From Candidatus Latescibacterota bacterium (GTDB lineage: Bacteria; Latescibacterota; UBA2968; GCA-2709665), in contig CBDCOX010000002.1 in the NCBI GenBank assembly GCA_965219995.1, positions 4,640,001-4,704,000 of the forward strand: a stretch of 64,000 bases of DNA, given 5' to 3'. The notes beneath the pieces were generated by a model, which saw nothing but the letters and a program-made list of their open reading frames with translations, made no database searches and was not told the DNA's origin. The position numbers and the translations under genes were made by a program. Position 1 is the first letter of the stretch. Each line of letters begins with the position of its first letter. Below are positions 16,749 through 52,026 of this stretch, piece after piece.

Positions 16749-17627
16749 GGAAGTGATCTCCCGTCGCTGATGCCAATAGGCGACGGGTTTTTGTGTGAGG
16801 GTGGGGCAGACATTCCTGTCTGCCCACGTGCGATAAAACTGTCATCCTGAGGAAGCGCCCGGCCTGCCAGAGAATCATTGGCAGGCCGGCTGACGAAGGA
16901 TCTACTGCAGCATCGGATTTTATGCTCGGATGTCGGTCACTGACCGCGCCCTGAGCCGCTCCCTGAGCATGCGGTGCCCTGAGCTTGTCGAAGGGTCGAA
17001 GGGTCGGCGAAGGGATTGCGAATCGTTTACGGGCTGCCTGAACGCGGGCATTTCGACAAGCTCAATGACCACGCATTAATAGGCGATCTTCGAATTCGCT
17101 CAGAATGACAGTTTGGCCGATCATTACCGTCGCGGAAGGCCGGGCGCCCACAAGGTACGCCCATACAAAGGCCAGGGGGGTTGAACGTCAAATCTCTTGG
17201 AAGTGATTCCCTCGTCGTTGGCTGAGCATGCGACCGGGTTTTTTGTATGAGGGTGGGGCAGACATTCCTGTCTGCCGACGTGTTCTGAACCTGTCATCCT
17301 GAGGAAGGCGCCCGGCCTGCCGGAGATTCATTGGCAGGCCGGCTGACGAAGGATCTACTGCAGCATCGGATTTTATGCTCGGATGTCGGTCACTGACCGC
17401 GCCCTGAGCCGCTCCCTGAGCATGCGGTGCCCTGAGCTTGTCGAAGGGTCGAAGGGTCGGCGAAGGGATTGCGAATCGTTTACGGGCTGCCTGAACGCGG
17501 GCATTTCGACAAGCTCAATGACCACGCATTAGTAGGCGATCTTCGCTGCGCTCAGAATGGCATGTTTTGCAATGGCAATATGCGAAATGTCTCGGTCATA
17601 CGTTTGCCGGGACTGTCATCCTGAGGA
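16749..17627. repeat. ~450-bp tandem duplication of a composite nested REP/MITE-like element
   Basis: Copies at about 16749-17111 and 17199-17563 with about 200 bp identical core; outer inverted ends CTGTCATCCTGAG...CTCAGAATGACAG; the start of a third unit at 17613-17627. Confidence 0.9.
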
Positions 17628-21493: not shown

Positions 21494-21535
21494 ACCCTCA
21501 CCCCCCAACCCCCTCTCCCAAGGGGAGAGGGGGAG
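21494..21535. repeat. CCCCTCTCCC...GGGAGAGGGG palindromic REP-like repeat
   Basis: CCCTCACCCCCCAACCCCCTCTCCCAAGGGGAGAGGGGGAG; reverse-orientation copy at about 28564-28603. Confidence 0.75.
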
Positions 21536-21617
21536 CAGACAGCTTGAGGCAAAACCGGGACACCGCGAGGGGATCACAGTTTCCCTTTCCGTCAGGAAGA
21601 GGGTAGGTCTCGTAAAA

Positions 21618-21783
21618 GCGGGTAGAAGTAAGACGTGAGGCGGGAGATGACATCAGAGCCTGTTCGGTATCATCTCTTGCCAGCGGCATAATGGAAGAAC
21701 CAAACGGGCAAGGACGTCATCTACCGTCTACCCTCTACCGTCTCACCGCTTTCATCTTCCGTCTTGCGTCTCACGTCTCACCG
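21618..21783 (-). repeat. Heptamer-flanked modular repeat element, copy A
   Basis: Reverse complement reads CGGTGAGACGTGAGACGCAAGACGGAAGATGAAAGCGGTGAGACGG...GGTAGATGACGTCCTTGCCCG..., homologous to 28614, 39757 and 48696. Confidence 0.85.
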
Positions 21784-28380: not shown

Positions 28381-28613
28381 GGTTGATTCACCTTTGCGTG
28401 GTACGGATCATATGGCCGGAGTCGACTGGTTTCCCCCCTGGGGGCGAGGGCATCCTGCCCTCGAGGCGCCCGTTCCGGTTACGCCACATCACGGCGCAGA
28501 CGCCAACGGATTGGTTTCTGCTTCAGACTGACAGCTAAAGGCTGATAGCTGAAAGCTGGTTTTCTCCCCCTCTCCCCTTGGGAGAGGGGGCCGGGGGGAG
28601 AGGTCGCCAAAAA

Positions 28614-28778
28614 CCGGTGAGACGGAAGACTTTAGACGGTAGATGAAAGCGGTGAGACGGTAGACGTTAGACGGTAGATGACGTCCTTGCCCGATTGGTT
28701 TTTCCCTTATGCCTGCGGCACAAAATGAAACCGGACGCGGCGGACAATCTCTCCCCTCTTACATTTCACGTCTCCCCT
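28614..28778 (+). repeat. Heptamer-flanked modular repeat element, copy B
   Basis: CCGGTGAGACGGAAGACTTTAGACGGTAGATGAAAGCGGTGAGACGGTAGACGTTAGACGGTAGATGACGTCCTTGCCCGATTGG...inverted CTCTTACATTTCACGTCTCCC. Confidence 0.85.
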
Positions 28779-28836
28779 CCTTCAGCTCTTTCTCTGTCTT
28801 TCCTTTGTGTCTCCCTATGGGTTGGTTTTCGCTTTT

Positions 28837-28863
28837 ATCCTGTTCATCCTGTCCATCCATGTT
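28837..28863 (-). repeat. 9-mer GGA-rich repeat (AACATGGATGGACAGGATGAACAGGAT)
   Basis: Same motif at 38921-38947 (-), 46622-46640 (+), 48625-48653 (+), 51937-51964 (+). Confidence 0.85.
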
Positions 28864-34832: not shown

Positions 34833-34959
34833 TCTCAAGAAGCGGGTAGACGTAAGACGTAAGAGGGAGATGATATCACCGCCTACCGATCTCGTTCTCC
34901 TTTTCATTAGCCGGTTTGGTCTCTCCGATCGCAAGGGTCCGTTTCTTCAGGAACTTTAC

Positions 34960-38764: not shown

Positions 38765-38987
38765 GGAATCGGGTCCGCCAGGTTGTTTTTCTGAGTATCC
38801 GGTGTAAGACAAAAGGAAAGCGGTTAATTTTCAGGGATCGCGGTGGTTGGAGTGATGATTTGTGGTATATGGTGAATCGATACACGGCAGTTCCTCGTTT
38901 TCTCGCGCTCTTTGGTTTTTATCCTGTCCATCCTGTCCATCCATGTTTCTTTCGTCGGTTTATGAGTTAAAGAGACGAGACTTTCGG

Positions 38988-39756: not shown

Positions 39757-40043
39757 CGGTGAGCCGCAAGCCCGTAGATGAAAAGCTTGAAAGCGGTGAG
39801 ACGTGAGACGCAAGACGGTAGAGGACGTCCTTGCCCGATTGGTTCTACTTTTATGCCTCTGGCGAGAAATCAACCCGCACAGGGCAATAAAACCCGTTAG
39901 ACGCAAGACGGTAGACGGTAGATGATAACGTTACCACAGTGTCTCCACGCTAACCGTGCCTGTTTCTCTACCGCTATCGTAACGACTAGAAAAACCATAT
40001 GCCACTCACATCATCTCCCCTCTTACGTCTAACGTCTCCCCGC
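39757..40043 (+). repeat. Heptamer-flanked modular repeat element, copy C (long form)
   Basis: Repeat - spacer 1 - repeat - spacer 2 - inverted repeat (TCATCTCCCCTCTTACGTCTAACGTCTCCCCGC). Confidence 0.85.
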
Positions 40044-40109
40044 CTTTAGGGTGTTTCCCGGTTCCCTTTGTGCCTTTGTGTCTCCGTGTGAGTTGAATTT
40101 CGGTTTCGG

Positions 40110-41198
40110 CTATATCAACTCCGTCCCGTCCATGAATTCGATCAGTGTCCGGTTCGCCCGGGAAAATGCATAGTCTTCGAGGCTTTCGGGTACGACCCAT
40201 TTCGCGTCCGTACAGGTCCGCGCGCGGGCTCTGCCGCCTTTGTAGTCGCATCGAAACGCATGCATGGTGACGCTGAAGTGGGTGAAGGCGTGTCTGACGG
40301 TCCTGAACCGGCTCCGCAGGGCGGCGTCGACGCCGGTTGCCTCGCGCACCGCGCGTATACATGTGTCACCCAGGGCCTCGCCCTGCAGTTGTCGGGCCGA
40401 TGGAAATTCCCAGAGTCCGCCGAGAAGCCCGTTTTCCGGCCGGCGCGCGATCAGGATCTTGTCTTTCCGGGATACGATTCCAACACCCAGGATGTGGTGC
40501 GGGCGCGATTTCGTCGGGGCTTTGACGGGTAGCGATTCCGCGGTACCTGATTGATACGCGGCGCAATATTCGTCGACGGGACACGAGCCGCATCGGGGAG
40601 CGCGCGGGCGGCAGACCGTCGCGCCAAGTTCCATGATCGCCTGGTTGTACTCGCCGGCGTTGCCGCTGTTCAGAAGGTCGCCGGCCAGTTTCTGAAGACG
40701 CGTTCTGGTGCGGGTTTGCGCGATATCGTCCCGAATCTCGAAGAGCCGGGAAAGAACGCGGATTACGTTGCCGTCGAGAACGGCGTAGTCCCGGTCGTAC
40801 GCGATACTCAGGACGGCGGCCGTGGTGTAGGGTCCCAGACCGGGCAGAGAGGAAAGATCGTCGTAGGCATCGGGCACGGCGCCGTTGAATCTCTCCACGA
40901 TGTACCGGGCCGTTCTGTGCAGGTTTCGGGCGCGGGAATAGTAGCCCAGGCCCTCCCAGGCCTTGAGGACCCTGTCTCCCTCCGTTCGGGCGAGGTCCTG
41001 CACAGTCGGGAAATCTCTCAGGAACCGCCTGTAATAGGGAATGACGGTCTCGACCCGGGTTTGCTGAAGCATGAACTCGGCGAGCAGAACGTGGTATGGA
41101 TCGGACGTATGACGCCAGGGGAGATCCCGCTTTTCGCGACGATACCAGGCGAGCAGGGCCCTCTTGATCGATCCAAATCCTGACGGGTCGGCAGTCAT
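40110..41198 (-). CDS. mutY: A/G-specific adenine glycosylase
   Basis: RDLPWR, EFMLQQTRV, WEGLGYYSRARNL, LPGLGPYT, DGNVIRV, ELGATVC...PRCGSCPV..C, GGLWEFP; start MTAD. Confidence 0.96.
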   Translation of the reverse strand: MTADPSGFGSIKRALLAWYRREKRDLPWRHTSDPYHVLLAEFMLQQTRVETVIPYYRRFLRDFPTVQDLARTEGDRVLKAWEGLGYYSRARNLHRTARYIVERFNGAVPDAYDDLSSLPGLGPYTTAAVLSIAYDRDYAVLDGNVIRVLSRLFEIRDDIAQTRTRTRLQKLAGDLLNSGNAGEYNQAIMELGATVCRPRAPRCGSCPVDEYCAAYQSGTAESLPVKAPTKSRPHHILGVGIVSRKDKILIARRPENGLLGGLWEFPSARQLQGEALGDTCIRAVREATGVDAALRSRFRTVRHAFTHFSVTMHAFRCDYKGGRARARTCTDAKWVVPESLEDYAFSRANRTLIEFMDGTELI

Positions 41199-48599: not shown

Positions 48600-48695
48600 C
48601 CCGTTAATTTTCCGGACTCGAACAAACATGGATGGACAGGATGGACAGGATAAGAGCCTCAAGAAGAGAACGAATGTAGGGGCGACCCTTGTGGT

Positions 48696-48948
48696 CGGTA
48701 AGAGGCGGTAAGAGGGTAGACGTTAGACGGTAGATGACATCCTTGCACCATAGGTTCTTACTCAATGCCTCTGGCAAGATGTGAAACCACACGGGGCAAT
48801 AGAACCGGTGAGACGTAAGAGGGTAGACGGTAGATGAAGACATTTATAGCAGTGTTTCTACACAAACCGTGCCTGCTAATTTACCGTTATCGTAGCAATC
48901 AAGAAAAACCATAGGGCACTCACGGTATCTCCCGTCTCCCGTCTCACC
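48696..48948 (+). repeat. Heptamer-flanked modular repeat element, copy D (long form)
   Basis: Collinear with copy C including both spacers; directly follows a truncated GTAGGGGCGACCCTTGTGGTCG REP. Confidence 0.85.
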
Positions 48949-49001
48949 ATGGAAGAGGGGCCGGGTGGGAAGTCTCCCCGCCTTCAGTCTGAGATTCTGA
49001 A

Positions 49002-51893: not shown

Positions 51894-52026
51894 CGGACCG
51901 CGGATGGTTTTCTCTTAATGTCTGAATTCGAAACTTACATGGATGGACAGGATGAACAGGATAAGGACCCGGAAGGTGAATCCCTCCTTTTGCCCGGTCA
52001 TAGCGACAAATCGGCAGCGGAGGGCC

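Follow-up and report, generated by a model that had tools for sequence, protein, structure and literature searches.

A genus-wide family of gene-less modular repeats in a Latescibacterota bacterium shares its heptamer-array ends with a four-helix-bundle gene cassette

We analysed a stretch of 64,000 nucleotides (nt) from a Candidatus Latescibacterota bacterium (the window; positions 1–64,000, corresponding to C2:4640001-4704000 of the genome that we call G000) and focused on a dispersed repeat, the R element, that is assembled from short heptamer arrays and conserved spacers and is closed by an inverted array. Four copies (A to D) and a solo R unit are present, at the five places where a sequence-only reading of the window had put them. 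The genes beside the copies are housekeeping genes (lon, M32 carboxypeptidase, SDR, mutY, amidohydrolase and rsgA). All four copies lie between protein-coding genes and not in rRNA, and none of the four contains an open reading frame (ORF) of the TIGR02436/PF05635 family. The features of these copies are given below with the evidence for each; sp1 and sp2 are the two conserved spacers, t1 is a four-helix-bundle gene elsewhere in G000, and G001 to G014 are the other genomes of the genus.

21613–21650, plus strand: copy A, inverted R (orthologous-site comparison).
21651–21716, minus strand: copy A, sp1 in a short form (sequence, orthologous-site comparison).
21717–21783, minus strand: copy A, a tandem pair of R units within the lon leader (sequence, tandem-repeat listing, neighbouring gene).
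28610–28681, plus strand: copy B, two tandem R units with period 35 (sequence, tandem-repeat listing).
28682–28745, plus strand: copy B, sp1 (sequence, BLAST).
28746–28780, minus strand: copy B, degenerate inverted R (sequence).
34840–34873, plus strand: solo R unit (sequence and pattern count).
39757–39783, plus strand: copy C, degenerate leading R with GAGCCG/AAGCCCG heptamer variants (read directly; same degenerate form at the orthologous site in G006, G009, G011 and G014).
39790–39825, plus strand: copy C, left-arm R, AAAGCGG lead-in and four heptamers (sequence, pattern count, arm consensus).
39826–39888, plus strand: copy C, sp1 (168 genome BLAST hits; hairpin potential TTGCCC/GGGCAA, GGTT/AACC and TGCC/GGCA).
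39889–39925, plus strand: copy C, internal R (sequence and pattern count).
39926–40009, plus strand: copy C, sp2 (64 BLAST hits; 83/87 identical to the G001 orthologue).
40010–40049, minus strand: copy C, inverted R, right arm (sequence, pattern count, arm consensus).
48600–49001, plus strand: composite insertion that includes copy D (in G001, G010 and G003, just 6 nt, GCGATC, separate the stop codon from the start codon that follows).
48697–48737, plus strand: copy D, left-arm R (sequence, young-pair comparison).
48738–48799, plus strand: copy D, sp1 (133 BLAST hits).
48800–48837, plus strand: copy D, internal R (sequence and pattern count).
48838–48923, plus strand: copy D, sp2 (98.9% identical to C2:3148683-3148770, beside the t1 gene).
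48924–48948, minus strand: copy D, inverted R, right arm (sequence, young-pair comparison).

Each R unit contains four AGACGNN-type heptamers. That number had been read correctly at first sight; the length of about 30 nt had not, and we set the arms at ~40 nt because a conserved lead-in precedes the heptamers at both ends. The consensus runs from the lead-in TAAA(A/G)(G/C)CGG(T/G)G through three AGACG/AGAGG heptamers to a closing AGATGA, and the same consensus, mirrored, was found at both outer ends of 114 convergent clusters. We counted 38 occurrences of the pattern AGACGNNAGACG (at most one mismatch) in the window; dinucleotide-preserving shuffles contained 5.37 ± 2.21, and none of 100 reached 38. 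Inverted ends surround the conserved spacers in the two module orders that had been proposed: the long copies C (39757–40049) and D (48697–48948) read R-sp1-R-sp2-inverted R, and the short copies A (21783–21613, minus strand) and B (28610–28780) read R-R-sp1-inverted R. Units are 150–290 nt long and non-coding, with terminal inverted repeats.

The genome (5.44 Mb in 2 contigs, 60.6% G+C, 98.6% complete) holds a large family of such arrays. A simple pattern of at least three heptamers, applied to the whole genome, identified 470 R arrays in 189 loci. Where adjacent arrays lay on opposite strands, 131 pairs were convergent and 10 divergent; R neighbours on the same strand showed preferred periods of 35, 42, 49, 100 and 107 nt. 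The BLAST hits to the sp1 queries (168 and 133) and the sp2 queries (64 and 64) were de-duplicated to 173 sp1 and 65 sp2 places, in line with the earlier claim that the spacers are homologous between loci, and a third spacer, sp3, is found between inverted R units. We considered a clustered regularly interspaced short palindromic repeat (CRISPR) array and rejected it: the spacers are themselves repeated 65–173 times, and the arrays close with an inverted repeat. On a crude map of ORFs, which together cover 83% of the genome, 418 of the 470 arrays fell outside ORFs. The configurations of flanking genes (56 −−, 55 ++, 39 −+ and 39 +−) matched genome-wide proportions, and between co-directional genes sp1 was in sense orientation at 55 places and antisense at 46, and sp2 at 14 and 19, respectively. 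The variable heptamer positions are occupied by essentially six dinucleotides (TA, GT, GG, TG, TT and CA). An R and its inverted partner within one element agreed at 2.09 of six variable positions, fewer than the 2.80 ± 0.13 of shuffled pairings, so the arms are not tuned for perfect pairing. R loci were very unevenly distributed on C2, numbering 0–5 in each 100 kb of the first 3 Mb and 6, 18, 12 and 12 per 100 kb at 3.0–3.4 Mb. This peak in cluster density (3.1–3.4 Mb) surrounds the t1 gene at 3.148 Mb, in a region that is origin-proximal by GC skew (cumulative minimum at ~3.9 Mb on C2).

The family is present throughout the genus, with matches in all 14 other genomes, and was found in none of seven genomes from four other genera of the same family; weak element matches were observed in 9 of 19 genomes of a second family. 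Public record titles for this genus disagree on its phylum (Latescibacterota versus Gemmatimonadota), and we placed these records together despite their labels because Lon protein identity within the group is 87–95%. We compared seven orthologous sites among the genus genomes. At the copy-C site, between the SDR gene and mutY, four genomes (G002, G003, G007 and G008) have a spacer of 21–32 nt that lacks the element, four (G006, G009, G011 and G014) have 206 nt with the short R-R-sp1-inverted-R form, three (G000, G001 and G010) have long forms in 318–394 nt, and four (G004, G005, G012 and G013) carry unrelated inserts. The copy-D site reads TAA-GCGATC-ATG in G001, G010 and G003; in G000 a 397-nt composite takes the place of GCGATC, with no duplication, and G008 has a different insert of 108 nt that includes a solo inverted R. 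The copy-A site in the lon leader ranges from no module (G012) through a solo inverted R (G001) and the short form (G000) to the long form (G010). Remnants of arms were also seen: G001 retains the last 18 nt of an arm where G000 has ~380 nt of modules (and G010 carries an element of another heptamer family, the AGCTGAC type), and G000 retains 24 nt where G010 has a whole short element. Modules thus differ at orthologous sites among sister genomes, and copies decay to arm remnants. For annotation, these elements explain the long and variable spacers inside otherwise conserved operons of the genus. Contigs assembled from the reads of four DNA runs break in repeats, and none spans site D in an empty state; run X5 gave contigs, identical to the window, that extend from each flanking gene into the copy-D insert. 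Copy C and its G001 orthologue are identical at 224 of 249 positions (60/69 in sp1 and 83/87 in sp2), close to the 86% and 88% identity at third codon positions of the two flanking genes between the same genomes, so this copy has drifted roughly neutrally. The element evolves at about the neutral rate.

Copying has been recent. Among 61 R-sp2-inverted-R copies, identity to the nearest relative had a median of 0.908 and was at least 0.95 for 15, and distant loci share copies that are 95–99% identical. Over 249 nt, for example, copy D shares 95.2% identity with C2:3148661-3148908, a copy next to the t1 gene at a distance of 1.5 Mb. We compared eight pairs of similar copies and set aside one self-match and one older pair (86% identity). 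In four of the six remaining young inter-locus pairs, homology ends with the outer edge of each arm (R and inverted R), and the other two belong to larger composite repeats. The stretch from R to inverted R is the unit that is copied to new intergenic sites. A TA or CTAG target, or a target duplication, was rejected as an explanation of the sequence at its edge: the TAAA lead-in also precedes internal R units and is part of the unit.

One gene has the same ends. S23p is the PF05635/TIGR02436 family of small proteins, first seen inside intervening sequences (IVSs) of 23S rRNA, and it has a distant relative in Avd of diversity-generating retroelements. There are three TIGR02436 genes in G000. 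One of them, t1 (C2:3148098-3148463), stands between R arrays, with complete gene-less elements on both sides, and it carries exactly the R arms of the window copies; TIGR02436 is the sole gene found in R context in this genome. The t1 protein matches TIGR02436 with 119.5 bits and PF05635 with 125.2 bits and matches the Avd model weakly; among solved chains, the nearest is PDB 2GSC (E 1e-29; one entry, five chains). Genes of the t1 type, with 83–92% protein identity, were found as seven copies in six further genomes of the genus, and so in 7 of 15 genomes including G000, and all seven copies outside G000 have R arrays within ~130 nt. The median ratio of non-synonymous to synonymous substitution (dN/dS) was 0.16 (21 pairs of seven copies), and the t1-type gene is under purifying selection. 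In G003, three R units in tandem are followed by a 55-nt leader, the gene, a 62-nt tail and an inverted R. The leader begins with CCTTGCC, as does sp1, and the tail ends with GGGCACTCATAT, as does sp2. When the 64 nt of sp2 to the left of this shared end were compared, anchored and ungapped, with the last codons of the gene and its tail, identity was 42–48%, compared with 33–34% in shuffles (p 0.001–0.018). A local alignment of sp2 with the t1 3′ end was not significant (z ~1.1), and because it fails to confirm the anchored comparison, descent of sp2 from the 3′ end of the cassette is only suggested.

We also examined and withdrew a cross-phylum transfer of t1. Genes with 90–91% DNA identity to t1 occur in two records titled 'Gemmatimonadota', in which Lon is 87–89% identical to that of the window; as a yardstick, Lon identity to the window's protein is 95% within the genus and 67% in another family of the order. 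Both records are members of the genus, matching by contig and coordinate (G041 is G006, and G042 is G011), and no transfer needs to be invoked.

Heptamer arms accompany TIGR02436 genes more generally, as had been proposed when the window was first read. The pool of TIGR02436 genes that we assembled combined those of G000 and of the genus with those of three unrelated genomes (titled Acidobacteria, 'uncultured Bordetella' and Verrucomicrobiae); 38 genes less three duplicates (G041/G042 repeating G006/G011) left 35 that are distinct. Period-7 tandem arrays lie within 260 nt on both sides of 26 of the 35 and on at least one side of 32. Upstream and downstream arrays are mostly reverse complements of each other, and the heptamer varies from gene to gene. 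In the three unrelated genomes, array density was 3.08 per kb within 260 nt of the gene (25 in 8,109 bp) and 0.10 per kb more than 500 nt away (3 in 30,154 bp). Homologues of t1 at 60%, 48% and 37% identity, from three unrelated genomes, adjoin arms of the AGAGG/AGACG type. The other two TIGR02436 genes of G000 each have their own arm type. G000 also contains gene-less heptamer arrays of the AGCTGAC type (for example, at window positions 28528–28558); this type flanks a TIGR02436 gene 44% identical to t1 in sister genomes (L190, L185, L187 and L191), and G000 is without such a gene. Arrays of the R type, many of them solo, occur in other phyla as well, in at least 111 stretches against ~2 expected from a rough independent-base estimate.

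The absence of a transposase near the copies, noted at the outset for the window along with the non-coding nature of the spacers, extends to R contexts anywhere in the genome. ORFs in 15 gaps between neighbouring R clusters, inspected by eye and without a family-library scan, contained nothing recombinase-like other than the TIGR02436 gene. The Y1 transposase (Y1_Tnp, PF01797) had no match in G000, and the same search was positive in 6 of 14 genomes; a reverse transcriptase (RVT_1) was likewise not found in the genome. An IS630-family element with four copies (C2:972874, 2939747, 4479970 and 3560681; 1164 nt, 96–99% identical, with a 368-amino-acid DDE_3 ORF) was rejected as a transposase partner, as its ends read CTAGTACTTA and are unrelated to the R arms. 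No match was obtained for the t1 protein in phage records or in the PADLOC defence library, for element DNA in plasmid records or for the R pattern in IMG/VR.

Together, the data describe a real family of gene-less modular repeats, spread through the genus and active in recent time, with the ends of an IVS-type four-helix-bundle cassette. We favour, with somewhat better than even confidence, the reading that the four window copies and the solo R unit belong to a family of gene-less, non-autonomous derivatives of that heptamer-armed cassette. The copies are better seen as a stripped-down selfish cassette than as a gene or an RNA because their repeat-built ends are those that enclose the four-helix-bundle gene, and we class them as derivatives, and not as members of the cassette itself, because a TIGR02436 gene is absent between their arms. 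The full cassette comprises an arm, a short leader, the TIGR02436/PF05635 gene, a short tail and an inverted arm. Gene-less copies would have arisen from it by loss of the gene, keeping R, inverted R and adjoining sequence, with sp1 or sp2 in place of the gene. The arms may serve as cis-acting sites, and copying may rely on a factor supplied in trans, for which the pentameric four-helix-bundle protein and host recombination and repair are candidates; recombination among the many R units could then shuffle, delete and tandemly amplify modules. The copying factor is probably not a classical transposase, since target duplications are lacking and these ends bound no transposase. As to the protein candidate, a solved member of the S23p family is described in passages of PMC4990558 as a homopentamer of four-helix bundles. 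Avd is reported, in part of bioRxiv 10.1101/2023.10.23.563531, to bind an RNA stem-loop and to be required by the reverse transcriptase of its retroelement; the genome, however, has no reverse transcriptase. The absence of any orientation or context bias and the near-neutral divergence are best read as marks of a selfish rather than a functional element.

Several observations weigh against this interpretation. A target-site duplication was not seen between the filled and empty forms of site D, in the flanks of 30 full copies or in the six young pairs, and no protein with a known DNA-breaking or DNA-joining activity was linked to the arms. The anchored similarity of sp2 to the 3′ end of t1 is weak (42–48%), and the local alignment mentioned above gave it no support. 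The t1-type gene was not found in 8 of the 15 genus genomes, including the element-rich G010 (one contig, 99% complete) and G001; because both are rich in elements without such a gene, it is not needed for the element to persist. Across 19 representatives, protein and heptamer similarity co-vary weakly (rho 0.15, permutation p 0.043), and R-type arrays of other taxa mostly stand apart from such a gene: only 3 of 49 loci outside the genus had a piece of a TIGR02436-like ORF in their 300-nt flanks. A master copy at the t1 locus, or local hopping from it, was rejected, as young copies showed no significant tendency to lie closer to t1 (rho −0.18, p 0.15). Finally, the intergenic and orientation counts rest on the crude ORF map.

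The strongest alternative, which we nevertheless consider unlikely, is that there is no dedicated mobility at all. The elements would then spread by host homologous recombination or gene conversion, with ~40-nt R units as portable homology, spacers between pairs of R units as exchangeable cargo, and allelic exchange from strain to strain moving filled spacers. Such a process would fit the lack of a target duplication, transposase, Y1 transposase or reverse transcriptase, and it would fit modules that behave as exchangeable blocks, as seen in the preferred periods (35, 42, 49, 100 and 107 nt) and in the long and short forms at one orthologous site. Different heptamer families substitute for each other at the same site, and insert D replaced its 6-nt spacer instead of duplicating it. 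However, recombination between R units leaves unaccounted for the first arrival at sites free of R, such as the empty sites of 6 and 21 nt, and the exact stop of homology at the arm edges in four of the six young pairs.

Less likely still, in our judgement, is a mosaic put to use by the host in the manner of bacterial interspersed mosaic elements (BIMEs) and repetitive extragenic palindromic (REP) sequences, in which the R arrays and the sp1 hairpin would be sites for nucleoid, gyrase-like or RNA-binding proteins or signals that stabilize or process mRNA. Intergenic placement and a mosaic of repeat units and conserved linkers are what such a role would lead one to expect. The stem pairs of the potential sp1 hairpin are kept in 61–85 of 85 copies, mostly through sequence conservation and G–U wobble, and single changes favour wobble on the plus strand (~48 versus 22 in our own tally); the restriction of the two variable heptamer positions to six common dinucleotides and the 83/87 identity of sp2 between the G000 and G001 orthologues point in the same direction. 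Against host use, there is no bias of orientation or context, sites are empty in sister species in which the same flanking genes are intact, the whole element diverges at about the synonymous rate, the genome has no gene for a Y1 or REP-associated tyrosine transposase (RAYT), and the R unit, unlike REP, is not palindromic.

The first option of the sequence-only reading, a mobile or recombining cassette, is supported in part, by a multi-copy modular element that is gained, lost, remodelled and recently copied. Its second, a repeat-delimited ncRNA family, did not hold up, whether taken as structured small RNAs or as RNA elements that regulate in cis: although the wobble pattern of sp1 favours one strand and the predicted fold shows that R and inverted R can form an imperfect stem around sp2 (blocks of 5 bp, the variable positions being mismatched), an RNA is highly improbable given that Rfam yielded no match at gathering score in the 64-kb window and best E values of 0.19 and 0.76 in a permissive search of copy D, that fold energies were no better than those of shuffles (z −1.24 and −0.90), that promoter-like or terminator-like sites were not found in copy C, that both orientations relative to genes are equally common, that the agreement of variable arm positions (2.09 versus 2.80 of 6) speaks against selection for arm pairing, and that divergence proceeds at the neutral rate.

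The preferred reading, descent of the gene-less copies from the cassette, can be extended well beyond this genus. The pentameric S23p/TIGR02436 four-helix-bundle protein might be the dedicated partner of a class of mobile cassettes that lack a transposase, with the arms as its binding sites; gene-less families mobilized in trans might be a main source of the long-noted excess of heptamer tandem repeats between bacterial genes, and the ORF-bearing 23S rRNA IVS might be one special landing place. We regard this wider proposal as speculative and doubtful. If protein and arms do act together, the function of a very widespread family of small proteins becomes testable, and heptamer tandem repeats in bacterial intergenic DNA are supplied with an origin.

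Other repeat families lie close to the R elements. A further module (..TTCCCTTTGTGCCTTTGTGTCTCC..GAGTTG..TTTTCG) follows the inverted R at window positions 40062–40110 and 28800–28830; it has 21 genomic BLAST hits and occurs in G010 too. The copy-D composite (48600–49001) contains, in addition to the R element, a 9-mer array module, a REP-like hairpin and a GC-rich tail, all of other repeat families. The first of these is a separate dispersed family of 9-nt tandem units (GGATGGACA / ATCCTGTCC), seen in the window at 28837–28863, 38921–38942, 48630–48651 and 51941–51962; its core has ~100 BLAST hits genome-wide, and one copy forms the left part of the copy-D insert. Tandem Repeats Finder (TRF) listed 644 period-9 and 517 period-7 rows in the genome. 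The REP-like hairpin (GGGGCGACCCTTGTGGTCG) lies at 48672–48698, and hairpins related to it fill the copy-C site of G004 and G005 and also stand in the leader of lon in G001 and G008. At 21500–21540 and 28560–28605 there is a GC-rich hairpin repeat (CTCCCCCTCTCCCC..GGGAGAGGGGG..GGGGGGAGAGGTC) that has ~27–50 BLAST hits in the genome and often adjoins R elements. Outside the window, C2:1808513-1808808 and 2538664-2538959 are copies of a 296-nt repeat (94% identity) that has inverted ends of its own (TCTAGTGTTCTGTCCC...GGGACAGGACACGAG) and encloses an R element; it looks like a second family of miniature elements. Away from the R copies, the TRF arrays CTGAGCCGCGCC x2.5 and GTCGAAGG x2.5 occur twice in the window, at 16940–17006 and 17393–17459, 453 nt apart, which suggests a tandem duplication of ~450 nt.

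Viewed as a class of element, a mosaic repeat dispersed between genes, the R family is ordinary; what is unusual is its partner, and no known mobility enzyme comes with it. BIME/REP sequences are intergenic and of high copy number, with a short unit in two orientations, few types of conserved linker and a variable number of modules. R elements share with them and with REP-derived REPINs the high-copy intergenic mosaic, the two orientations, the few conserved linkers and the varying module number. They differ in that R is a direct heptamer array and not a palindrome, in that G000 has no RAYT/Y1 gene, and in that the R arms are common to a four-helix-bundle gene cassette. Miniature inverted-repeat transposable elements (MITEs), such as the Correia elements of Neisseria, are short and non-coding, with terminal inverted repeats, many copies and a protein-coding parent that has the same ends. 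R elements resemble these too, being ~150–290 nt, non-coding and multi-copy, with terminal inverted repeats, insertion polymorphism and a protein-coding 'parent' with the same ends; here, however, there is no target-site duplication, the parent cassette encodes no transposase, and the ends of the resident IS630 element are unrelated.

With the 23S rRNA IVS, as portrayed in passages of PMC4990558, the R family has in common the protein family (in the t1 cassette), small units with complementary ends, a sporadic distribution and a reputation as selfish. The window copies, by contrast, lie between protein-coding genes whereas IVSs lie in a helix of 23S or 16S rRNA, and they have heptamer arrays as arms and no ORF. 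The complementary ends of an IVS form a stem that RNase III cuts; the R arms can pair imperfectly. The ORF-bearing IVS of Coxiella burnetii measures 428 nt and occupies one locus, as against ~190 here, and its ORF is reported in those passages as decaying (PMC4990558), whereas the t1 gene is under purifying selection.

Heptamer repeats have themselves been described before. The text of PMC4679880 reports TAACTGA heptamer repeats in Beggiatoaceae, cyanobacteria and Bacteroidetes, and that of PMC2700814 reports families of four or five tandem heptanucleotides in Geobacter metallireducens. According to these passages, such repeats resemble ours in having 2–6 heptamers at tens to hundreds of mostly intergenic loci, with a patchy distribution and suspected horizontal spread; they are direct repeats read as regulatory, whereas R units form paired inverted arms around conserved spacers. 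The text passages of PMC4679880 and PMC2700814 draw no link to a four-helix-bundle gene (the supplementary heptanucleotide lists of PMC2700814 were outside the search). More broadly, a literature search that left supplementary files aside found no description of the R element or of heptamer-armed TIGR02436 genes, and the family is undescribed in the literature searched. Among dispersed intergenic repeats, which are a common kind of sequence, this family is unusual in its ends made of heptamer arrays, in a sole coding relative with the same ends that is a gene of the enigmatic 23S rRNA IVS family under purifying selection, and in its amplification to ~190 loci with exchangeable spacers.

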